Origin: Chloroflexota bacterium
GTDB lineage: Bacteria; Chloroflexota; Dormibacteria; CF-121
Direction: 5' to 3'
Length of the DNA stretch: 52,133 nt
Assembly (NCBI GenBank): GCA_005881235.1
Contig: VBEQ01000154.1
Coordinates: 1-52,133 of the forward strand
Made by a program: the position numbers and the translations under genes
Notes under the pieces: model-generated
What the model saw: the letters and a program-made list of their open reading frames with translations, nothing else
What the model was told of the DNA's origin: nothing
Databases searched by the model: none
Shown: positions 41,192 through 52,133 of the stretch, one piece after another
Layout: every line of letters begins with the position of its first letter
Numbering within the stretch: position 1 is the stretch's first letter

Positions 41192-42058
41192 ATGAATGAC
41201 GAGGGCCATATATCTTTGCCGGCTCTCCAGTCGGACCTGAGCCAGCAGCCGCAGGTCCAAATCCATGGCGGCCGGTCCGCAGCGCGACGCGCGATGGCGG
41301 CCGGAAGAGAGGGGTTAAATATCGTCAACCGCTACCGGATTCTGATCGTCGACGATGATGCCATGGCGCGCGAGATCCTCAAGCGGATTCTCGAGCACGC
41401 GGGCTACGAGGTCATGACCGCCGGCAGTGGCCCCGAAGCTTTGCGCAAACTCCATGAAGGCATCCCCCATCTGGTCGTCGTTGACTTGATGATGCCGGAA
41501 ATGGATGGCTTCGAACTCTGCCGCCGCATCAAGAGCCACCTCGACGTTCCCATCGTCATCCTCAGCGCCGTCGCCGCCATCGAGAGCAAGGTCGAAGGCC
41601 TGCAGATGTACGCCGAGGACTACATCGTCAAGCCGTTCGAAAAGGAAGAGCTGGTCGCGCGGGTGCAGCGTGTGTTGCGCCGTTACGGTGAATCCGCCGG
41701 CGTCGAGCAGCCCGAGGTCGTCATCGACCAGGAGCTCCAGATTAACTTCGTACAGCACTGGGCACGCGTGAAGGGCCAGCAGGTGACCCTCACCCCGACC
41801 GAGTCCAAGCTCCTCTTTCTCCTCGTCCGGAATGCCGGCCGGGTCGTCACCAACGAAACCCTGCTCGCCAAGGCCTGGGCCGGCGACGAGGAAGCCTACG
41901 AGGAAGGGCTGCGCGTTCATATCTCGCGGCTGCGCAGCAAGATCGAGTCGAATCCCAGCAAGCCAACCTACATCCAGACCAAGCGTGGTGTCGGCTACCG
42001 CTTCAGCGCCAAGGTCAACTATCCCGCCGGACAAGAACCGATGGCGCTGGCGGGATGA
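41192..42058 (+). CDS. OmpR/PhoB-family response regulator (REC plus winged-helix)
   Basis: RILIVDDD...VVVDLMMPEMDG...ILSA...YIVKPF, followed by the Trans_reg_C motifs LTPTESKLLFLL...RVHISRLRSKIE...IQTKRGVGYRF. The start may be ATG 41294 instead of 41192. Confidence 0.9.
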   Translation: MNDEGHISLPALQSDLSQQPQVQIHGGRSAARRAMAAGREGLNIVNRYRILIVDDDAMAREILKRILEHAGYEVMTAGSGPEALRKLHEGIPHLVVVDLMMPEMDGFELCRRIKSHLDVPIVILSAVAAIESKVEGLQMYAEDYIVKPFEKEELVARVQRVLRRYGESAGVEQPEVVIDQELQINFVQHWARVKGQQVTLTPTESKLLFLLVRNAGRVVTNETLLAKAWAGDEEAYEEGLRVHISRLRSKIESNPSKPTYIQTKRGVGYRFSAKVNYPAGQEPMALAG

Positions 42059-42800: not shown

Positions 42801-45065
42801 TCAGGCAGCGGTGCTGAGGTCGATGACTTCGGGAACCGCCCGCTGGGGGATCGTGAAGGTAAACGTGCTGCCCTGGCCGGGCGTGCTCTTCACCCAGATC
42901 CGTCCGCCATGCATCTCCACCAACCGGCGGGAGATCGCCAGGCCCAACCCGGTGCCCTGGTACTTGCCGCTGATCCCGCTCTGACCCTGCTGAAAACTTT
43001 CGAAGATCCGCTCGGCGTCGTCGAACGGCACACCGATGCCGGTATCGCGGACGCTGATCAACAACTCCGCACCCTGGCGCTCGGCCGTGACACGCACGCT
43101 GCCCGTCTCCGTGAACTTGATGGCGTTGCCCAGCAAGTTCAGGAGGACCTGCTTGAGCTTGGGGCCATCCGCAAAGACGCGGCCGACCTCGGCGGAGACG
43201 GTGGCGCTCAGTTCGAGCTTCTTGTTCTTGGCCAGCGAGCTGACACTCTCCACGCACTCTGAAATTAGTGGCTCGACCTCGACCTCGCCGCGGTGGAGCT
43301 GCGCTTTTCCCGCCTCGAGCTTGGAGATATCCAGGAGATCGTTGATCAGAACCAGCAGGTGCTGTCCGTTCTGGCCAATGATGTCCACGTCCTGGCGCTG
43401 GTCGGGGGTCAAGATGCCGCCGTCGCCCTCGAGCAGCAACTGGGAGAAGCCGAGGATCGAGTTGAGCGGTGTGCGCAGCTCGTGGCTCATGTTCGCCAGG
43501 AATTCCGCCTTGTGCTGGTTGGCGCGTTCAAGTTCGGCGTTGACCGCCCCCAGACGCGCCGTCTGCTCGGTGGCGAGGTGGAACAGGTGCGCTTCCTGGA
43601 TGGCCGTCGCGGCGTGCTGCGCGAAGAGCGTGAGGAGCTCGATGGTGTTGCGATCCAGCGGGCGGCGGTGGTAGATGGCGAGCACGCCCAGCAACTGCTC
43701 ACCGACCACCATGGGGAAGCCGGCAAAGGCGTGGATGCCTTCTTCCGACATCCAGGGATTGAGCGAGAGCTGGCGGCGGTTGGCCGGATCGTTGGTAACG
43801 ATCGGCACGCGCAGCTCGGCCACCTGGCCGATCTCCCCCATGCCGCGCTCCACCCGTCCGGGAACCGGCGGCGCGTTGCGCGTCGTGTGATGACCGGCCC
43901 GCCGCCAGAGCGCGCCGTCGCTCTGCTCCAGCAGCCAGATCTGGGCTGCCGCGAAACCGAGGTTGCCGGTCAGCGCGGTGGCCATGATATCGAGCAGCTC
44001 CGGCTCGAAAAGTTTCTGGTTCATCTGGTCGATCGATCGGTTGAGCAGCTCCAGGCGGCGGGCGCGCTTCTCCGTCTCTTCGAACAGGCGCACGTTGCGC
44101 AGCGCTACCGCCAATTGCTGCGCGAGGACCTCCAGCGCCTCCTTCTCCCAGCGCGTGAGACGCCGCTCGGTTTCACGCGTCTGCAGATGCAGCACGCCGG
44201 AGACCTTGCCTTCGAGCAGTACCGGGGTACCGAAGACCCAGGAGTAGCCGGCGTTATTGAGCGCCGGCAGGTCGAAGAGTGGCGACTCGTCCAGCGTCAC
44301 GAAGCCCCGCTCCCGGACCACCCGTCCCACGATCCCGTCGCCCGCCGAGATCGCCGTGCCTTCGATCGCTTCCGGGAGATGAACCGCCGCACGGAGCGTA
44401 AAGACTCCACGGTCTTCGTCGAGCAGAACAATCGCCCCCGAGTCCATTTGCAGAATTTCGAGTCCGCAACGGATGACCGTATAGAGCATGCGCGACACGT
44501 CGAGCTGGCCGACCAGCTCGCCCAGCACGTTGCGCAACTGCTCGGTCTGATCGAGCCGCCGCCGGGTCCCACGAATCTCGGTATTCATCGCCCGCACGGC
44601 GGCGCCCAATCCGGTGATGACGGCCACGGTCGGGATCGCCCGCAGGATCGAGTCCCGCACCGAGATGGCGAGGCCCAGATCGCTGGTCTGGAAGAGAACG
44701 ATGCCGACCGTGAAGAAGAGGCTGGTCCCGATTCCGCCCCAGAGGTCGAAGCGGAAGACGGCTTCGGCGGCGACCAGCGCGTAGAGCAGGTAAGGAAGGC
44801 TGGACGACGGCGTCGCGAACAAGAGGATCCAGCCGCTGACGACCAGGTGATCCAGCACCAGCAGCAGGACGGCCATCGGCCGTGTGAAGCGTGGAACAGA
44901 TTTCTTCCGAATGGCAAGTGTCGCCACCCCGTTGTAGGCCGCGAGCAACCCGGCAAGCAGGATGGTGACCGGCGCCGAGGCCGAATTGAGCCAGAAGAGC
45001 AGGCCGATTGGGATGGCGAGGGCGCCGAAGCGGAGCCGGACGAACTGGCGGTCGAGGGCAGTCAT
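42801..45065 (-). CDS. Membrane sensor histidine kinase (multi-TM N-terminus, two GAF domains, HisKA, HATPase_c)
   Basis: About 6 TM helices in the first 170 aa and GAF-like regions. H-box [22 protein letters not shown]-box [12 protein letters not shown] and G-box [21 protein letters not shown]. Confidence 0.9.
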
Positions 45066-45080: not shown

Positions 45081-47672
45081 CTAAGCGGCCTGGCTGGTTT
45101 GAAGGTTGTTGATCATCTCCAGGAAGCGGTCTTTGCCGAAGTCCCCTTTCTGGATGATCGACTGGATGTTGCCCTGCAGACGCTCCCGATCTTCGCTGCT
45201 GATGTTTTTCGCCGTATAGATAAGGATGGGGATCTGGCTCGCCGCGGGGTCCTCCCGCAGCTTGGAGACGACCTCAAAGCCGTCGACGTCGGGCATCATC
45301 AGGTCGAGGATGATCATGTCGGGCTTCTTCTTGAGGGCCAGTTCCAGGCCCGCCTTGCCGCCATCGGCGACCATGATCTCCATGTTGAACGGCTTCAGCA
45401 TGGCCTTGACCAGCCGGATGTTCTGCGGGTCGTCGTCCACGATCAGAATCGACGACGGCGTCTTCTTGCCCTTCTTACCGTCGGCCAACAGGTCGAACTT
45501 CACCATCATCTGGAGCAACTGCTGCCGGTCGATTGGCTTGGTGAGGAAATCGGCCTGACCGATATCGAACGGCAGTGATTCCTTGTTGACCTTGGAGGTC
45601 AGCACGATCGGGATGTCTTTCGTCTTCGATTCGCGGCGCAGGTCGTAGACGAGGCCACTGCCGCCGTTGGGCGGGAGCTGGGTGTCGATCAGGACGGCGA
45701 GCGGCTGGAGCTGTACCGCTTTGCGCAACGCCTCCTGGGCGCTGGCGGCGATCACCACCTCGTAGCCCGCATGGCTGAGGAAGGGCTCGATGCGCTCCTT
45801 GACCGCCGGGTCATTGTCGGCGACGAGGATCACCGGCGCTTTGGTCCCGGCGCCCACCGGCGGCATGATCTGCACCGGCCGCTCCTGGATGCCGGCTTCC
45901 TGCTTGGCGAACTCGATCAGCTCGCGGATGTGCTCCACCAGCCGCTTGCCGCTTTCGTTGATATGGGCGACAAACTCGCGCCGCTCTTCGGGCGTCGTCT
46001 TGTTCGCCTTCTCGTCGAGCAGGATCTCGGAGAAGCCGATGATCGCGTTGAGCGGTGAGTTGAGGTCGTGGCTCTGGTCGTAGATGACGCGGAACTTGGC
46101 TTCGAAGTCGCGCTTGGCCTGGCTCAGTGCCGGCGCCGCGTCCTTGTTCTTGCCGCTGGCACTCAACTCCACCTTGAGGCCCTCCAGCTGCGCCTGCATG
46201 GCGCGCTTCTCCGCTTCATAGCGCGCCAGCACCTGGCTCGTCGGCGGGCCGCTGCCGGCCGCCTTGCGCGCCTCCTCGAGCTGCACCTTGAGAGAGGCCT
46301 TCTCCCGCTGCCACGCCAGCTCCAGCTCCTTGGTCTCGCCGGCGCGCCGGCTGTGGAGCTCGTTGGTCTCCGACATCATGTCGGAGAGCTGGGCCTGGAT
46401 CCGCTCCAGGTCGACCTTGAGCTGGTTCTTCTCGGCCGTGAGCCGCTGCTCGCGGCCGGTCCATTCCTGGGCTTTGCGGCCGCTCTCGCCGGCGAGGTCG
46501 GCGTGCAGCGCTTTGATCTTTTCGTAGTCCTGCTGGGTCGCGGCCAGGCGGGCCGACGATTCGGCGGCCTGCTTCTTGAGGGTCGCCTTCTCCTCGGCGA
46601 AAGACGCCTCGCGGCTTTGCCAGTCCTTCTCCAGCGCCTTGACTTTGGTCAGGAGCGCCGAGCGCTCGTCACTCAGCCGCTGGAACTCAGCCTCGGCCTT
46701 GTCGAGGTCGGCCCCCTTCCTGCGCGCCTCTTCCAATTGCGTCTGGAGCAGCTTGCGATCGGCTTTGTACTGGCCTTCAGCGGCCTGCGCGCCCTGCTCC
46801 AGCCGGGCGACATCCGCGATCAGCCGCTGCCGCTCGGCCTGCCACTTCTCGCGGGCGGCCTTGAGTGGCTCGACCTCGCCCTGGACGGCCTTCAACTGCT
46901 CCTGCAACTGCGACGTCAGGCTCTGCAGCCGCGCCTTCTCCTGGGTGAGCTCGACCCGCGACTTCTGCCATTCCTGCTCCAGCTGCGCCTGCTTGGCGAC
47001 CGCGGTGTCGCGATCCTTCAGTAAGGTCTCGCGATCGACGGCCCACTGGAGCTGCGCCGTCTGCAGGTTGTTGAGGTCGTCCTCCGCGGTCTTGAGGTCG
47101 CTGCGCAGCTTCTTCTGGTCCGCTTCATACTTCTGCGCGAGCTGGATCCGTTCCTGCTCGAGCTGCCGGAGCTGTCCGCGGCGCTCCTCATCGCGGGTCT
47201 TGGCGCGAGCGACGTCATCCCTGAGGCGAGCCAGTTCAACCTGGGACCGATCGTGGCCCTGCTGAAGATCCAGGTGACCCTGCTTGAGCGACTCGTGCTG
47301 GTCGAGCAGCGCCTGCCGCTCCATCGCGTGCTCACCGTCACGCGCCTTGGCACGGGCGAGCTCATCCTTGACGCGACCGAGGTCCACCTGGGCCCGGTCG
47401 TGGGTCTGCTGCAGACTCGCCTGGCCCTTCTTGAGCGATTCGTGCTGCTCGAGCAGGGCTTGCCGGTCCATGGCCCATTGCAGCTGGGCGTTCTGCAGCT
47501 CGTCGAGCTCCTCTTGTTTGGCCTCGAGCTGCTGCTTGACCAGCGCCAGTTCCCTGCCGGTCTGGGCAAGCTGCGCGCCCATGTCGTCCTGCAGCGTCTG
47601 GAGGTGCGCGACGAATTCCTGGTTCTGCTGCAGGATGTCGGCGAACGACTTCGCCTTGGGGGCCTCGGGCAT
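45081..47672 (-). CDS. Coiled-coil (about 500 aa) plus DHp/HisKA-only module plus two receiver domains; no ATPase (CA) domain
   Basis: Residues 1-520 are heptad-like and rich in Gln/Glu/Leu/Ala/Lys/Arg, with internal repeats. The H-box YDQSHDLNSPLNAIIGFSEILL has His535 at 46070-46068, and the second DHp helix is EFVAHINESGKRLVEHIRELIEFAK. REC-A follows directly (VILVADND...VLIDTQLP...VLTSK...FLTKP), then REC-B (ILIVDDD...IILDLMMPDVDG...IYTAK...QKG). I see no N/G1/F/G2 boxes. Confidence 0.85.
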   Translation of the reverse strand: MPEAPKAKSFADILQQNQEFVAHLQTLQDDMGAQLAQTGRELALVKQQLEAKQEELDELQNAQLQWAMDRQALLEQHESLKKGQASLQQTHDRAQVDLGRVKDELARAKARDGEHAMERQALLDQHESLKQGHLDLQQGHDRSQVELARLRDDVARAKTRDEERRGQLRQLEQERIQLAQKYEADQKKLRSDLKTAEDDLNNLQTAQLQWAVDRETLLKDRDTAVAKQAQLEQEWQKSRVELTQEKARLQSLTSQLQEQLKAVQGEVEPLKAAREKWQAERQRLIADVARLEQGAQAAEGQYKADRKLLQTQLEEARRKGADLDKAEAEFQRLSDERSALLTKVKALEKDWQSREASFAEEKATLKKQAAESSARLAATQQDYEKIKALHADLAGESGRKAQEWTGREQRLTAEKNQLKVDLERIQAQLSDMMSETNELHSRRAGETKELELAWQREKASLKVQLEEARKAAGSGPPTSQVLARYEAEKRAMQAQLEGLKVELSASGKNKDAAPALSQAKRDFEAKFRVIYDQSHDLNSPLNAIIGFSEILLDEKANKTTPEERREFVAHINESGKRLVEHIRELIEFAKQEAGIQERPVQIMPPVGAGTKAPVILVADNDPAVKERIEPFLSHAGYEVVIAASAQEALRKAVQLQPLAVLIDTQLPPNGGSGLVYDLRRESKTKDIPIVLTSKVNKESLPFDIGQADFLTKPIDRQQLLQMMVKFDLLADGKKGKKTPSSILIVDDDPQNIRLVKAMLKPFNMEIMVADGGKAGLELALKKKPDMIILDLMMPDVDGFEVVSKLREDPAASQIPILIYTAKNISSEDRERLQGNIQSIIQKGDFGKDRFLEMINNLQTSQAA
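47175..47468 (-). repeat. Tandem 147-nt (49-aa) coding repeat in the coiled-coil gene
   Basis: Residues 69-117 read DRQALLEQHESLKKGQASLQQTHDRAQVDLGRVKDELARAKARDGEHAM. Residues 118-166 read ERQALLDQHESLKQGHLDLQQGHDRSQVELARLRDDVARAKTRDEERRG. A third, degenerate copy follows AQLQWAVDRETLL at residue 206. Confidence 0.8.
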
Positions 47673-48040
47673 CAGGCCGCCCTCCGTCCTTGCTGCATGT
47701 AACGCTCGACCGCCGACCGCATGGCGTCGAGGTGCGCACTCATGGCGCCCAGCTGGTCGACGCGCTCCTGTTCCAGCTGACTGAGCTCTTCCGCGCGGTC
47801 GGCTTCCCGTTCGATCGACTGGCGGAGCTCGCGCTCCAGCCGGGCAATCTCGGCTTGCGCCATCTCGTAGGCATTTTTCGTGTCGAGAAGGTCCTTCTTG
47901 CGCGCCTCATCCTCATCGATCAGCCCCTGCAGATTCTTGAACAGCTCCTGGTTGAGCTGCAGGATCTCCGGGTAGGAGCGGCTCGCTTTGGACGCCGCCT
48001 CATCGGTTCGGACTGGCTTGCCTGGCTGTTCGCTCATCAC
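47672..48040 (-). CDS. 122-aa coiled-coil protein, paralogous at its N-terminus to the 863-aa protein
   Basis: SRSYPEILQLNQELFKNLQGLIDEDE aligns with KSFADILQQNQEFVAHLQTLQDDM of the next gene. The rest is predicted helical. It is overlap-coupled on both sides (GTGA at 48037-40, TGATG at 47670-74). Confidence 0.55.
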   Translation of the reverse strand: MMSEQPGKPVRTDEAASKASRSYPEILQLNQELFKNLQGLIDEDEARKKDLLDTKNAYEMAQAEIARLERELRQSIEREADRAEELSQLEQERVDQLGAMSAHLDAMRSAVERYMQQGRRAA

Positions 48041-48426
48041 GCCGTCTTCAGCCGCCCCTGCTGCAGGTAGCGGGCGACCTCCCCGGGCAGGCCTTGCGGA
48101 TCAACCGGCTTGGGAATGTAGCCGTCGCAACCAGCGCCCAGGATCTTCTCCCGGTCTCCGGCCATCGCGTGGGCGGTGAGGGCGACGACGACGACGCCCG
48201 CCATCCGGGCATCGGAACGGATCTTGCGGGTGATCGCCAGCCCATCTTCCCCCGGCAGCTGGATGTCCATCAGGACGATGTCGGGCAGCTCGCGCGTCAT
48301 CTCCGCCAGGCACTCGGCGCCGCTCCCCGCTTTGCGCACGGTGAAGCCTTTCTTCTCCAGGAGGAACTGGGCCAACCGGAGGTTGACCGGGTTATCTTCG
48401 ACGATCAATACCTTGCCGGCGGTCAC
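48037..48426 (-). CDS. Single-domain CheY-like response regulator
   Basis: From GTG 48426 (TTG 48408 is an alternative): KVLIVEDNPVNLRLAQFLLEKKGF...IVLMDIQLPGEDG...VVALTAHAMAGD...GCDGYIPKP has all canonical receiver residues. The rest of the 273-aa track ORF is a shadow of the upstream kinase. Confidence 0.85.
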   Translation of the reverse strand: MTAGKVLIVEDNPVNLRLAQFLLEKKGFTVRKAGSGAECLAEMTRELPDIVLMDIQLPGEDGLAITRKIRSDARMAGVVVVALTAHAMAGDREKILGAGCDGYIPKPVDPQGLPGEVARYLQQGRLKTA

Positions 48427-50821
48427 GCCCTGTTCTCCTTCGCCTCTGCACGATGTCCAAAGCCTTGATGGCGCGCAATACGACATCTGGCTCGGAGAGG
48501 CCAGAGGGTATAACGGCGCTCCATGCCGTCGCTGGCACCCTCGGTGAAACTTCACCCAGGGCCAGCAGGGCCGGCTGGCCGGGGAGGCCGCGGAGCCCGA
48601 CCACCCATTCCGGCTCGGCAGGCGCCAGCACGACCACGTCCGGGGCGGCCGCGCGGGCCTTCTCCAGGGCCTCCTGCAGCCCGGGCGCCCGGAAGACCTC
48701 GAAGCCCTCCTCGACCAGGGTGGCGGCCAGCGTCGCCAGCGCCCGCCGGTCGCGATGGACCAGCAGGACGCGGACCCGATCGCGCCGGCGGTTGATCCCC
48801 TGGCCGATTCGGCGCAATTCGTCCTGCATCGTTTTCGTAGCCCACGGCTTGGCGACATACCCGGCGACGCCGAACTGGTCCATCAGCGACTGATTGCGCG
48901 TCACCGAGCAGACCAGCACCGGGACGTCCGCGGTGGCAGCCCGGGCCCGCAACTCCTGGAGGACCTGCCAGCCATCCTTAACCGGAAGGACGGTCTCCAT
49001 CACCAGGAGGTCGGGCAAAATTTCCATCGCCTTGCGCACCGCCTGCTCGCCATCGGAGGCATGGGCGACCCGGAACCCCACGCCCTGGATCTCCGCCGTC
49101 ATCCGCTGGCTGCTCGCGGGATCGTCCTCGATCACCAGCGCCAGCGGGAGTTCCATGGTCTCCAGCGTCGGCGCCGCCTCCTCCACCGGTGACACGGCCG
49201 CCGGCCTGGGCTCGCGGGGAATGGTGAAGGTGAAAATCGAGCCTTTGCCGAATTGGCTCTCCGCCCAGATCCGGCCGCCGTGCATCTCGACGAAGCGGCG
49301 GCAGAGGGCCAGGCCCAGGCCGGTCCCCTGGTAGCGTCGGGTGTAGGAGCCGTCGATCTGCTCGAACTCGCGGAACAGCTTGGGCAAGTCTTCCGGCTTC
49401 ATCCCGATGCCGGTGTCCTCGACGGAGACCGTCAGCTGCTCCGGCGAATCCTTAACCGACACCGTGATCGTCCCGGGCGCCGGTGTGAACTTCACGGCGT
49501 TCGAGAGGAGGTTGTACAGCACCTGCTTGAACTTGCTGCGGTCGGCTTTGATGACCCCGGCGTCGACCGCGCCCACCGTCCGCAGCTGCAGGCCTTGCTG
49601 GCGGGCCATGGGATCGAGGATGGCGGTGATCTCCTGGAGCGCCGCCATCACCGGCATCTCCTCCGGGTGGAGGTCCATTTTGCCCGCCTCGATCTTCGCC
49701 AGGTCGAGGATGTCGTTGATCAGGCCGAGCAGGTGCTGCCCGCTGCTGTGGATGTTGCGCAGGAACTCGGTGCGCTCGCCTGCCGTCAGGTTCATGGTCA
49801 GGTCCAGCAGGATCTCGCTGAAACCCATGATGGCGTTGAGTGGCGTGCGCAGCTCGTGCGACATGTTCGCGAGGAATTCCGACTTGTACCGGCTGGACTG
49901 TTCGAGCTGGCGGTTGACCTGCAGGATCTCCTCGTCCGCGCGCCGCAGCGCCGCGTGCTGGCGCATCAAGTAGCGGTTCGAATCCTTCAGCCGCGCGACC
50001 AGGCTCTGCCGCTCCGCTCGCAGCCGCTGCTTCTCCAGGTTGCGTTCCAGGAGCTCCCGGAGCCGATGCAGGTCGATCGGTTTGGCGATGTAGTCGTCGG
50101 CGCCGCCACGCAGCGCCTCCGCCGCGACCTGCTCCGAGCCGTAGGCGGTCATCATCACGACCACGGATTCGGGAAAATCGCGGAGCATCTGGGGTAGGAG
50201 GCTCAAGCCGCTCTCCTCCGGCATCTGCACGTCGAGGAAGATCAGGGCCGGGCGGCGACCGTCGAGTTGCCGGCGGGCCTGGGTCGCGTTGGGGGCCGTC
50301 ACGACGTCGAAGCCCTGTCTTTGGACCGCCTTGGTGAGGAACGCCCGGTTGTCAGGATCGTCATCGATGGCGAGCAAGACCGGCCGTTCCTCCTGTTCCG
50401 GCTCCGCTCCAAGCAGCCCGCGCACCGCCTGGACCAGGTCCTGGTCTGAGCCCAGCTCGCGGCCGGAGCCCGTCGACAGCGGCCCCAGGTCGGTCAGGAA
50501 GCGGTCCGCACCCGCGGCCAGGGCCCGCTTGCCTTCGTCGGCATCCACGTGCACTCCGGCCATGAGCAGCACCGGGATGTTCGTCGTCGCCGGGTTGCTC
50601 TTCAGGATCTCGCAGACGCGAAGTCCGTCGATGCGGCGGAGCAGAAGGTTGAGGATGATGGCGTCCGGCACGTCCTCACGGGCCCGGTCCAGCGCCTCGA
50701 GCCCGTCCTGCGCCGAGAGGACGTCGAACCCCTCGCGCTGAAGTCGCCCGACGAGCGCCTGCAAGCGCTCGGGATCGTCGTCGGCGACGAGAATCCGCCG
50801 GGTGCTGCTCAGCTCGCTCAT
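48392..50821 (-). CDS. Hybrid histidine kinase: pseudo-REC, REC, HisKA, HATPase_c, REC(D->E), degenerate REC
   Basis: REC1 has ILNLLL (N58 at the phospho-acceptor position). REC2 has FLDVQMP (D197), MMTAYG and IAKP. H-box [22 protein letters not shown] (H322). N-box NLLSNAVKFT and G-box [24 protein letters not shown]3 has LLVMETVLPVKDG (E609). REC4-like has VVVLAPAEP (A733). Arg-rich tail RRRRTGRDRRQGIDRRR. Confidence 0.9.
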   Translation of the reverse strand: MSELSSTRRILVADDDPERLQALVGRLQREGFDVLSAQDGLEALDRAREDVPDAIILNLLLRRIDGLRVCEILKSNPATTNIPVLLMAGVHVDADEGKRALAAGADRFLTDLGPLSTGSGRELGSDQDLVQAVRGLLGAEPEQEERPVLLAIDDDPDNRAFLTKAVQRQGFDVVTAPNATQARRQLDGRRPALIFLDVQMPEESGLSLLPQMLRDFPESVVVMMTAYGSEQVAAEALRGGADDYIAKPIDLHRLRELLERNLEKQRLRAERQSLVARLKDSNRYLMRQHAALRRADEEILQVNRQLEQSSRYKSEFLANMSHELRTPLNAIMGFSEILLDLTMNLTAGERTEFLRNIHSSGQHLLGLINDILDLAKIEAGKMDLHPEEMPVMAALQEITAILDPMARQQGLQLRTVGAVDAGVIKADRSKFKQVLYNLLSNAVKFTPAPGTITVSVKDSPEQLTVSVEDTGIGMKPEDLPKLFREFEQIDGSYTRRYQGTGLGLALCRRFVEMHGGRIWAESQFGKGSIFTFTIPREPRPAAVSPVEEAAPTLETMELPLALVIEDDPASSQRMTAEIQGVGFRVAHASDGEQAVRKAMEILPDLLVMETVLPVKDGWQVLQELRARAATADVPVLVCSVTRNQSLMDQFGVAGYVAKPWATKTMQDELRRIGQGINRRRDRVRVLLVHRDRRALATLAATLVEEGFEVFRAPGLQEALEKARAAAPDVVVLAPAEPEWVVGLRGLPGQPALLALGEVSPRVPATAWSAVIPSGLSEPDVVLRAIKALDIVQRRRRTGRDRRQGIDRRR

Positions 50822-52095
50822 CCGGCCCTCCGAAGGGGGGCGCGCCCGGCCGGTTCGTGGAGGGCGACCAGCGGCCGCCGCGGGATCAGGAAGCGGAAGG
50901 CACTGCCTCGACCGGGGACACTCTCCACCCAGATCTGGCCACCCTGCAGTTCCACCAGCCGCTTGGAGAGCGCCAGGCCGAGCCCGATGCCCTCGTACCC
51001 GCGCGAGGTGGAGCCGTCGACCTGGCGAAATTCCTCGAAGAGGCGTGGCTGATCTTCCGGTTTGATGCCGATACCCGTGTCCCGGACCTCGACCACCGTT
51101 CCGGTGGGGCTCTCTATCGCGCTGATCGTGACGCTGCCATGGTGCGAGGTGAATTTCACCGCGTTGTTGACCAGGTTGTGGACGATGTGGCGGAGGCTTC
51201 GCGCATCGAAGACCACCTGCAGGGTGCGGTCCACCTGCGAAGTGACCGTCAGCTCCTTCTGACTCGCCGCCGCCGCGTTCTCCGACAGCGCGGCGTCCAC
51301 GGCGTCGGCCACCAGGCAGGGCGCCGGATGGAGCTCGAGCCGGCCGGCCTGGATATGGGTCAGGTCGAGGATGTCATTGATCAGGGTGAGAAGCTGGCGG
51401 CCACTGTTGTGGATCGTCTCGGCAAATTCGGCGCGTTCCGCCTCCGACAGCTCCGGGGTCGTCTGGATGATCTCCGAGAAGCCGATGATCGCGTTCAGCG
51501 GTGTGCGCAGCTCGTGCGACATGTTGGTGAGGAACTCCGACTTCATCCGGTCGGCTTCCTGCAACTCGAGGTTGGCGCGCTGCAACATCTCGATGGTCTG
51601 CCGCTCCCGCTGGAATCGCCGCGCATTGTCGAGGGCAACCGCGGCCTGGTTGGCGAGGATCTGCAGGACCTGCATCAGGGTCGGATCGAAGGCGCGGACG
51701 TCGTGGAAGTAGACCGATACCGTGCCGACGAACTCCCGCTCGAGGAACATCGGCAGACCCAGCGCCGCCCGCCAGCCGTACTGCTGGGCCAGTGGATCGA
51801 GCGGGAATCGGCCGTCGAGTTGAATGTCCTCGGAGAAGACTGGACGCTGCTCGATGACGACCTGGGTGATGAGACCCGGCGCGAGGCGAGCCAGCTTGTC
51901 TTGGGGGACGCGCGGCTGCACGCCGTCCCTCACCTCAACGGCCTGTTCGGCGGGGTTGCCGGACTGGGTCAGGGTGATGAGGCAGGAGGCGGCGCCCGAG
52001 ACGCCGATCAACGCCTGGGCGACGCCTTGCAGCAGCGCGGTCGGCCCGACCGTGGTCGCGGTCAGCGCCTGGGACACCTGGCGGAGCATCTCCAT
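50818..52095 (-). CDS. Cytoplasmic GAF-domain histidine kinase (possibly 5'-truncated by the window edge)
   Basis: GAF-like N-terminal half. H-box [22 protein letters not shown]-box NLVNNAVKFT and G-box GIGLGLALSKRLVELQGGQIW. The frame remains open upstream of ATG 52095 to the end of the window (..QTRQQALRLDAS), so the true start may lie outside. ATGA overlap with the next gene. Confidence 0.88.
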   Translation of the reverse strand: MEMLRQVSQALTATTVGPTALLQGVAQALIGVSGAASCLITLTQSGNPAEQAVEVRDGVQPRVPQDKLARLAPGLITQVVIEQRPVFSEDIQLDGRFPLDPLAQQYGWRAALGLPMFLEREFVGTVSVYFHDVRAFDPTLMQVLQILANQAAVALDNARRFQRERQTIEMLQRANLELQEADRMKSEFLTNMSHELRTPLNAIIGFSEIIQTTPELSEAERAEFAETIHNSGRQLLTLINDILDLTHIQAGRLELHPAPCLVADAVDAALSENAAAASQKELTVTSQVDRTLQVVFDARSLRHIVHNLVNNAVKFTSHHGSVTISAIESPTGTVVEVRDTGIGIKPEDQPRLFEEFRQVDGSTSRGYEGIGLGLALSKRLVELQGGQIWVESVPGRGSAFRFLIPRRPLVALHEPAGRAPLRRAG

Positions 52096-52133
52096 CGAGG
52101 CGTCCAGCCGCAGGGCTTGCTGGCGGGTCTGCT

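Follow-up and report, generated by a model that had tools for sequence, protein, structure and literature searches.

Proteins that contain a HisKA domain and no HATPase domain are listed in the P2CS database as "possible incomplete histidine kinases," a group that includes archaeal REC-PAS/GAF-HisKA proteins (REC, receiver domain) such as AF_1472 (Galperin et al. 2018, PMC5847659). As of the 2018 census none of them had been studied experimentally, and roles as phospho-acceptor or phosphotransfer proteins and as phosphatases were proposed (PMC5847659). HisKA proteins lacking the domain for catalysis and ATP binding (CA domain) were also described in PMC1183210 and as the "iHK" class (bioRxiv 10.64898/2026.02.27.708494). 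ChpT of Caulobacter and Spo0B of Bacillus are dimeric, histidine kinase-like phosphotransferases that are unable to autophosphorylate and that link a receiver to a terminal regulator in a multi-kinase relay (PMC3433190). In the Caulobacter hybrid kinase ShkA, the first receiver, Rec1, has kept its Asp although its acidic pocket is incomplete, and it governs whether Rec2 can reach the dimerization and histidine phosphotransfer (DHp) domain; the residues that bind cyclic di-GMP (c-di-GMP) are Y338, R324, R344, S347, and Q351, and the linker carries the motif DDR (PMC6969517). Here we describe an 863-aa protein encoded on the minus strand at positions 45081 to 47672 of a 52,133-nt stretch of DNA from a Chloroflexota bacterium of the GTDB lineage Dormibacteria; CF-121 (contig VBEQ01000154.1, assembly GCA_005881235.1; the whole stretch is referred to as the window). 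It consists of a long coiled coil, a DHp domain, a degenerate receiver (REC1), and a canonical receiver (REC2). We assign a probability of roughly 0.45 to the reading that this protein is a Spo0B/ChpT-like dimeric His-phosphotransfer center, possibly also a phosphatase, which would exchange phosphate with receivers.

With its HisKA domain, its conserved His, and no recognizable HATPase, the protein falls into the "HisKA, no HATPase" class, whose members likewise sometimes carry a REC. Those proteins have PAS or GAF sensors and an N-terminal REC, whereas here a rod of ~500 residues is followed by the DHp domain and then by two RECs, in a family specific to the Dormibacterota. In ChpT and Spo0B, a histidine kinase-like hairpin dimerizes into a four-helix bundle that carries the shuttling His; our protein has such a hairpin with its His and likewise cannot autophosphorylate, and its hairpin would pair and transfer phosphate in a similar way. 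Both of these contain a CA-like alpha/beta domain at the position where our protein has a receiver fold, and neither has a rod or fused receivers. The helical domain of Spo0B (PF14689) had no Pfam match in the protein, and ChpT and Spo0B were absent from its PDB sequence matches. ShkA (6qrj) resembles it in having a DHp domain followed, further on, by a Rec1 with incomplete pocket, an acidic linker, and a canonical Rec2, and also in DHp sequence and receiver fold. In contrast to our protein, ShkA has a functional CA domain and no coiled coil, and its c-di-GMP-binding Rec1 has neither of the two acidic residues, while REC1 lacks only one of them; the linker motif reads DLLAD instead of DDR. By analogy, REC1 might bind c-di-GMP as well. 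RetS of Pseudomonas and DivL of Caulobacter are proteins of the HisKA lineage that signal by contacts, RetS by heterodimerization with GacS via the DHp domain and DivL with a Tyr in place of the His, as found in two paralogs of our protein. Both retain the CA domain, however, RetS is a membrane sensor, and neither possesses a DHp-receiver fusion or a long rod. PsmA, a pseudokinase of the Streptomyces polarisome, is hybrid kinase-like and has a cell-biological role alongside coiled-coil proteins, but it represents the opposite case and was rejected as a relative, as its CA domain is kept, its His and phosphatase motif are lost, and its function is independent of the phosphorylation sites (PMC12963549). 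The protein described here is neither a functional kinase nor a histidine-containing phosphotransfer (HPt) protein, an SMC protein, or a kinase of the ShkA type, and it does not belong to Spo0B/ChpT by sequence membership or by possession of a CA-like domain.

The gene is real and strongly conserved. The 863-aa open reading frame (ORF) on the minus strand that formed the basis of the original prediction was recovered in the ORF list, and its orthologs are 79 to 95% identical. The ATG at position 47672 is preceded by a GGAGG sequence and has 1 nt in common with the stop codon that ends the upstream ORF (TGATG). More than 120 protein clusters (clustering at 90% identity) match the protein over its full length with 79 to 89% identity and contain PF00512 and PF00072 as their only domains. 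They carry the database names "response regulator" or "CheY-like" and stem from metagenome-assembled genomes (MAGs) of Candidatus Dormibacteraeota or "Chloroflexi"; the gene is present in ~40 species-level genomes. In an alignment of 20 orthologs, the rod was moderately variable, and the DHp-REC1-REC2 part was near-invariant, surface positions included. A fusion or a frameshift with the upstream 122-aa ORF was considered and rejected, as the two ORFs do not share a reading frame, the stop of one overlaps the start of the other by 1 nt, and the GGAGG precedes the ATG. The two genes were also called separately in an orthologous locus (L001), and the orthologs begin at the same Met.

The DHp domain comprises residues 512 to 594 (45891 to 46139, minus strand) and was recognized by the Pfam HisKA profile at residues 530 to 594 (50.6 bits versus a cutoff of 26.9; E = 2e-13). 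Two AlphaFold runs predicted helices at residues ~512 to 552 and 561 to 592, and the best PDB sequence matches were the DHp domains of GacS, RetS, SrrB, DivL, and ShkA. By its sequence, the domain is clearly derived from hybrid-type HisKA kinases. The putative phospho-acceptor His535 (codon 46068 to 46070, minus strand) lies within IYDQSHDLNSPL, and the H-box reads H-D-L-N-S-P, with Asn at position H+3 (three residues after the His), where the canonical HELRTP box has Arg. These data confirm the HisKA hairpin and the His that had been proposed from the DNA sequence.

No CA domain follows this hairpin. The first strand of REC1 starts at residue 614, so that the linker between DHp and REC1 comprises only 18 to 20 residues, which agrees with the initial estimate of ~20 residues and leaves no space for a CA domain. 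A HATPase_c domain had no Pfam match in the protein even at E ≤ 0.1, and a search with NCBIfam gave receiver-type matches below threshold only. The full-length AlphaFold model (mean predicted local distance difference test [pLDDT] score 59.8, predicted template modeling score 0.25) was used for secondary structure only. A monomer model of residues 505 to 863, based on a more diverse alignment, had a mean pLDDT of 75, with 85 to 91 in the receivers. A Foldseek search of the PDB with this model retrieved tandem receivers of the PleD type, single receivers and, lower down, ShkA, and no Bergerat fold was among the matches. A hidden or divergent CA domain was therefore rejected on the basis of the Pfam and NCBIfam searches, the AlphaFold boundaries, and Foldseek. 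As an ATP-binding CA domain is missing, the protein cannot autophosphorylate in cis, in line with the conclusion drawn originally from the absence of the CA sequence boxes.

We tallied diagnostic residues over 74 family members, 71 of which could be aligned at the DHp domain. Scanning GTDB with one genome for each species had yielded 78 loci, nearly all in Dormibacterota MAGs, some of which carry evidently wrong phylum labels, with usually two to three copies per genome. Clustering revealed two main orthologous groups, an operon group of 40 loci that includes the gene described here and a second group of 21 loci. The His is present in 69 of the 71 aligned members, comprising all 40 operon orthologs and 29 of 31 paralogs. 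Besides a divergent CA domain, of which the searches above gave no sign, a His535 that varied among orthologs would have spoken against the original prediction; its conservation in orthologs is complete. The two exceptional paralogs contain Tyr, as does DivL, a pseudokinase of Caulobacter. Position H+1 is Asp in 40/40 operon orthologs and non-acidic in 30 of the 31 paralogs. Position H+4 is Ser in all 40 operon orthologs and Ser or Thr in all 31 paralogs (Ser/Thr in 71/71, Ser in 65/71). In HisKA kinases, autokinase activity is the only one that requires an acidic residue at H+1, and phosphatase activity the only one that requires Thr or Asn at H+4 (Willett and Kirby, PMC3510030). In view of these roles, the family appears to have dispensed with the kinase residue while keeping the His and a hydroxyl residue at H+4 throughout, with the operon group still having the Asp.

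REC1 (residues 613 to 725; 45498 to 45836, minus strand) occupies the position of a CA domain. It was identified by Pfam, by alignment with CheY and Spo0F, by the family statistics, and by the pLDDT of the model, and it retains Asp663 (codon 45684 to 45686), Thr692, and Lys712. In the alignment, Asp619-Asn620 lies opposite Asp12-Asp13 of CheY (Asn620 codon, 45813 to 45815). By this comparison REC1 is degenerate, with Asn620 replacing a Mg-binding Asp. The position corresponding to CheY Asp13 is Asn in all 40 operon orthologs, and Asp occurs there in only 1 of 32 paralogs. Asp663 is kept in 73 of 74 members; in 4 of 16 more divergent representatives the acceptor is Glu, and the position of Thr692 is Leu or Met in 22 of 33 paralogs. 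A linker of residues 726 to 740 (45453 to 45497, minus strand), delimited by invariant columns in the family alignments, contains the invariant residues D727 and A730-D731 (FDLLADGKR) and leads to REC2 (residues 741 to 858; 45099 to 45452, minus strand; Pfam match 742 to 854). At least 73 of the 74 members share the key residues of REC2, namely, D746, D747, D790 (codon 45303 to 45305), T820, and K842. The proposal of two canonical receivers thus applies to REC2 and not to REC1, and of the pocket residues said to be kept in both, the acceptor Asp, the Thr, and the Lys are indeed present, but the second acidic residue of REC1 is not. REC2 lacks an aromatic switch residue, having Ile839 at K-3 (three residues before the Lys) as read from the sequence, and it is followed by no output domain. 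The protein ends with Ala-Ala (45084 to 45089, minus strand), and the C-termini of the family are AA in 62/74 and AS in 8/74 members (70/74 together). In many paralogs, a basic tail of the form KRGERRxR directly precedes this terminal AA or AS. The AA end of the family resembles that of CtrA, in which a C-terminal AA is a degradation signal for ClpXP.

The gene is the fifth of six co-directional, tightly packed genes, which encode a GAF kinase (HK-A), a hybrid kinase (HK-B), a stand-alone REC, a small coiled-coil protein, the DHp-receiver protein, and another GAF kinase (HK-C). For a His-phosphotransfer center, we propose the following model. Two chains would pair via a four-helix bundle of their DHp domains, and the helices of ~500 residues that continue DHp helix 1 would form a parallel rod; a parallel homodimeric coiled coil is expected because DHp helix 1 runs on into the rod. 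At least one of the three neighboring kinases would phosphorylate a receiver, either the Spo0F-like 129-aa stand-alone REC or REC2. As the C-terminal receiver of HK-B has a Glu acceptor, HK-B cannot supply the relay Asp, which leaves these two candidates. The Asp-bound phosphate would be transferred reversibly to His535, as in Spo0B and ChpT, and then to a terminal receiver, which might be Asp790 of REC2 or an OmpR-type regulator encoded beside the cluster. When no phosphate arrives, the Ser/Thr at H+4 would allow the DHp domain to drain receivers as a phosphatase. REC1 is one metal ligand short and lies at the site of the lost CA domain; rather than as a relay station, it would probably act as a pseudo-receiver in regulation or docking, as Rec1 does in ShkA. 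The rod with its N-terminal head motif would probably serve to position or assemble this module, and the small upstream coiled-coil protein, which shares the motif, may take part.

This model is supported by the domain architecture without CA, by the precedents of ChpT and Spo0B (PMC3433190), and by the conservation of the His in 40/40 orthologs and 29/31 paralogs and of Ser/Thr at H+4 in all 71 members. The loss of the acidic H+1 residue in 30 of 31 paralogs is as expected for a DHp domain that does not autophosphorylate and still uses its His. The conserved cluster further provides three complete kinases, a stand-alone receiver, and the OmpR-type regulator, and it contains no HPt protein. 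Positions H+7, +8, +11, +12, and +15, which we take to be receiver-contact positions of DHp helix 1, are N, A, G, F, and I in the protein and identical in HK-A and HK-B, and REC2 and the stand-alone REC have a common helix-1 pattern, P-x-N-x-R-L. These sequence features are compatible with the same partners for all of them. Several observations weigh against a phosphotransfer center. The shared contact positions are weak evidence, as all of the hybrid-type HisKA subfamily has them in common. Spo0B and ChpT keep their CA-like domain, which is missing here, and our protein resembles neither of them in sequence. The Asp at H+1 in all 40 operon orthologs could mean that a CA domain still phosphorylates the His in trans, using ATP, and a conserved Ser/Thr at H+4 is a hallmark of phosphatase activity and not of transfer (PMC3510030). 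The second orthologous group adjoins no kinase, so that a relay role cannot be read from the context there, and two paralogs have Tyr instead of the His. Finally, the absence of HPt applies to the seven proteins scanned.

The same residues can be explained in other ways. If the CA-less DHp domain were a dedicated phosphatase or phosphate sink, it would hydrolyze the phosphorylated stand-alone REC or the phosphorylated OmpR-type regulator by means of H+4, with REC2 as an additional sink and the His kept for geometry. The invariance of Ser/Thr at H+4, a position needed exclusively for the phosphatase activity of HisKA kinases (PMC3510030), is what this explanation predicts, the role was raised for "HisKA, no HATPase" proteins by Galperin et al. 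(PMC5847659), and a REC2 without output domain and aromatic switch would suit a sink. However, position H+4 is canonically occupied by Thr or Asn, and here it is Ser in 65 of 71 members; moreover, the His is kept in 69 of 71 members, which is more than a phosphatase usually needs. EnvZ mutants altered in His243, for example, keep phosphatase activity. Three kinases and the lack of HPt in the cluster also suggest a relay rather than a mere drain. We regard a dedicated phosphatase as unlikely. Less likely still is a structural response regulator, with REC2 as input, the coiled coil as output, and the DHp domain serving for dimerization and for docking of REC2 as in closed ShkA. Its points in favor are the database name "response regulator," the canonical and invariant REC2, the succession of degenerate REC1, acidic linker, and REC2 that parallels ShkA (PMC6969517; Foldseek match 6qrj), and the group of family members in a uvrC-whiA housekeeping cluster that has no kinases. 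Receiver proteins with coiled coils do exist, FrzS and AglZ being examples. Such a function would not explain, however, why the His and the Ser/Thr at H+4 are kept almost without exception; REC2 and the rod stand at opposite ends of the chain, separated by DHp and REC1, and REC2 lacks the aromatic switch used for allosteric output.

The protein might instead be one half of a split kinase that is phosphorylated in trans by the CA domain of HK-A, HK-B, or HK-C, or its DHp domain might form heterodimers that modulate a kinase as in the RetS-GacS pair. A split kinase is known from M. tuberculosis in Rv0600c/Rv0601c. The Asp at H+1 in 40/40 operon orthologs, needed for autokinase activity (PMC3510030), would fit this idea, as would the identity of 44 to 45% between the DHp domain and those of HK-A and HK-B and the presence of the GacS and RetS DHp domains among the best matches of solved structure. 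On the other hand, a coiled coil of ~500 residues that runs directly into DHp helix 1 should force the chains into homodimers, the identity between HK-A and HK-B (64%) is much higher than that of either to our protein, the Arg at H+3 of the HELRTP box is replaced by Asn, and there are paralogs without an acidic H+1 residue and without a neighboring kinase. On balance, we consider a split kinase or a heterodimerization partner improbable, a shade more so than the structural response regulator. A decayed hybrid kinase that lost its CA domain as a pseudogene or by an assembly error or a frameshift would agree with the derivation of the DHp domain from hybrid-type HisKA kinases. It is made extremely improbable by the intact frame in >120 protein clusters and ~40 species, by the almost invariant DHp-REC1-REC2 part, and by the absence of HATPase_c from 16 of 16 divergent members and of a stand-alone HATPase_c ORF from the window. 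A phosphotransferase, a phosphatase, and a heterodimerization partner were the options offered by the original prediction. The literature proposes such roles for this class of proteins (PMC5847659), and our data favor the phosphotransferase but cannot decide between the three.

The coiled-coil rod extends over residues ~10 to 506 (46155 to 47645, minus strand). The N-terminal 525 residues show their strongest hydrophobic period at 3.52 residues and a best-register heptad score with z = 8.7 above shuffled sequences, and AlphaFold predicted rod helices at residues 10 to 108, 121 to 292, 299 to 393, 399 to 471, and 478 to 506. In the full-length model the chain is helical from residue 10 to 592 except for five short breaks at Gly/Pro, located near residues 109 to 120, 293 to 298, 394 to 398, 472 to 477, and 507 to 511. 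These results agree with the earlier description of a heptad-rich N-terminal part of ~520 residues, whereas its designation as SMC-like did not hold. Pfam found neither an SMC_N nor a hinge match in the protein, and residues 1 to 520 had no significant relative in the PDB, with a single marginal match to a centrosomal coiled-coil protein; a relationship to SMC proteins was thus rejected. To judge from these searches, the rod is a generic segmented coiled coil without SMC head or hinge. Its best-conserved part is the head motif SFADILQQNQEFVAHLQTLQDD at residues 9 to 30 (47583 to 47648, minus strand), which was defined by invariant columns in the ortholog alignment, a motif listing, and BLASTP against the small upstream ORF. 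Related motifs occur in paralogs and in the 122-aa protein encoded upstream. Within the rod, Tandem Repeats Finder and alignment gaps revealed a tandemly duplicated unit of 147 bp (49 aa), present in 1.9 copies with 78% match (47199 to 47471, minus strand). From the alignments, the length classes of the orthologs (814/815, 854, and 863/864 aa) appear to result mostly from this duplication, and rod length would accordingly differ among lineages by whole repeat units. It is a conjecture that the rod places the DHp activity on a filament or scaffold, or that it serves positioning, assembly, or partner binding via the head motif.

The order of the cluster is the same in L001 and in essentially every ortholog locus with enough flanking sequence, in ~40 Dormibacterota species. 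HK-A (425-aa ORF; 50818 to 52095, minus strand) has the Pfam domains GAF-HisKA-HATPase_c. The window probably ends within this gene, as the frame is open to the edge (50818 to 52133) and the ortholog in L001 has 675 aa and two GAF domains. HK-B (48392 to 50821, minus strand) was assigned by Pfam, a scan with local hidden Markov models, and its translation as REC(Asn)-REC-HisKA-HATPase_c-REC(Glu)-REC-like. Its first receiver has an Asn acceptor (IILNLLL), the second is canonical, the receiver that follows the CA domain carries Glu as acceptor (LVMETVLP), and the fourth is degenerate and gave only a partial REC match. The cluster is unusually rich in pseudo-receivers, with only one of the four receiver-like domains of HK-B being canonical. 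The stand-alone receiver (129 aa, GTG start, 48037 to 48426, minus strand) has a canonical set of residues (E-D, D, T, K) and was delimited by Pfam on a longer ORF, by the 129-aa gene in L001, and by alignment. The longer, 273-aa ORF (48037 to 48858, minus strand), which overlaps the end of HK-B, was discarded as an ORF-caller artifact. The receiver gene overlaps the HK-B gene by 35 nt, likewise in L001.

The small coiled-coil protein (122 aa; 47672 to 48040, minus strand) has no Pfam domain. It was taken from the ORF list and has a 111-aa counterpart at the same position in L001 and a gene at this position in most ortholog loci; the TGATG overlap of its end with the start of the DHp-receiver gene couples the two in translation. 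Both proteins carry related motifs at their N-termini (SYPEILQLNQELF against SFADILQQNQEFV), and over a stretch of 57 residues they are 37% identical (BLASTP). The small protein could cap the rod, compete with it, or assemble together with it. The last ~10 codons of the stand-alone REC gene (…YLQQGRLKTA*; 48040 to 48075) and of the small gene (…YMQQGRRAA*; 47675 to 47705; both minus strand) are alike at the protein and DNA levels. The copy of this shared 3′ end in the small gene holds the GGAGG Shine-Dalgarno sequence of the DHp-receiver gene and is possibly a duplicated gene junction. HK-C (42801 to 45065, minus strand; Pfam GAF-GAF-HisKA-HATPase_c) starts 15 nt downstream of the DHp-receiver gene at a conserved position, and its N-terminal ~190 residues, as read from the translation, are hydrophobic and resemble membrane segments. 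An OmpR-type response regulator (41192 to 42058, plus strand; Pfam) is encoded divergently beside the cluster here and in most loci with enough flank and is a candidate for the terminal output of the system; a GDT1-family gene also lies divergently beside the cluster. A search with the HPt profile (PF01627) gave no match in the DHp-receiver protein or in the six neighboring proteins scanned by Pfam.

The distribution of the family was also examined in a HMMER search with residues 505 to 863 as query against 1.84 billion representative proteins. About 15 clusters (43 to 83% identity, 546 to 935 aa, 200 to 580 residues before the DHp domain) matched DHp-REC1-REC2 in one unbroken stretch, and the remaining top matches were ordinary hybrid kinases that matched in at least two pieces. 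Five of these ~15 clusters are 92 to 99.8% identical to loci of MAGs labeled as Dormibacterota or as mislabeled synonyms. As the search pattern is family-specific, unrelated CA-less DHp-REC fusions may exist elsewhere. The 16 divergent members scanned for HATPase_c and found to lack it showed only weak, coiled-coil-type matches in their N-termini. Four loci of the genome scan that suggested the same architecture in other phyla (L075 to L078) were judged to be hybrid kinases with a CA insert, since their match spans are 160 to 300 residues too long, and were rejected. From these searches the family appears to be essentially confined to the Dormibacterota, which are, to our knowledge, an abundant soil phylum without cultured members. 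A search of the literature on two-component signaling in this phylum found nothing relevant.

Members of the second orthologous group lie between uvrC and whiA in the gene order uvrA-uvrC-[paralog]-lgt-whiA-gap-pgk-tpiA, with no kinase nearby, and have a shorter rod (~260 to 290 aa) and a non-acidic H+1 residue. Examples are the loci L046 (4990 to 18078), L043, L047 to L050, L052 to L054, L057 to L060, L062, L065 to L069, L071, and L074. In Firmicutes and Actinobacteria, the uvrC-whiA region is the site of rapZ and yvcK. A wider picture, which we think unlikely, is that of a phylum-specific, spatially organized phosphorelay. A rod whose length is estimated from its ~500 helical residues at some tens of nanometers would hold the kinase-less His-Asp center at a defined site, REC1 would gate the access of REC2 to the His, and the C-terminal AA would make the protein a ClpXP substrate; together with the uvrC-whiA group, this system would be a Dormibacterota counterpart, assembled from other components, of the CckA-ChpT-CtrA and DivL-DivK circuits of cell cycle and polarity.

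What is particular to this protein is the fusion of a DHp domain to receivers with a degenerate REC in the position of the CA domain, the rod of ~500 residues with its head, the operon with several kinases, and the occurrence in one uncultured phylum, with a further group in a housekeeping cluster. Judged by its residues and domains, it most likely passes on or removes phosphate rather than making it. CA-less HisKA proteins are counted in every two-component census and are usually misannotated as kinases or response regulators. For such proteins, this family offers an exceptionally clean test case, with the His, the H+4 residue, and one receiver under near-absolute constraint and with the partners encoded in one operon. 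With its long coiled coil, the protein also prompts the question of whether phosphotransfer is organized in space. The direction of phosphate flow in this system would show whether a bare DHp domain can perform His-phosphotransfer without the CA-like domain of Spo0B and ChpT, and it would give a first view of the signaling logic in the Dormibacterota.

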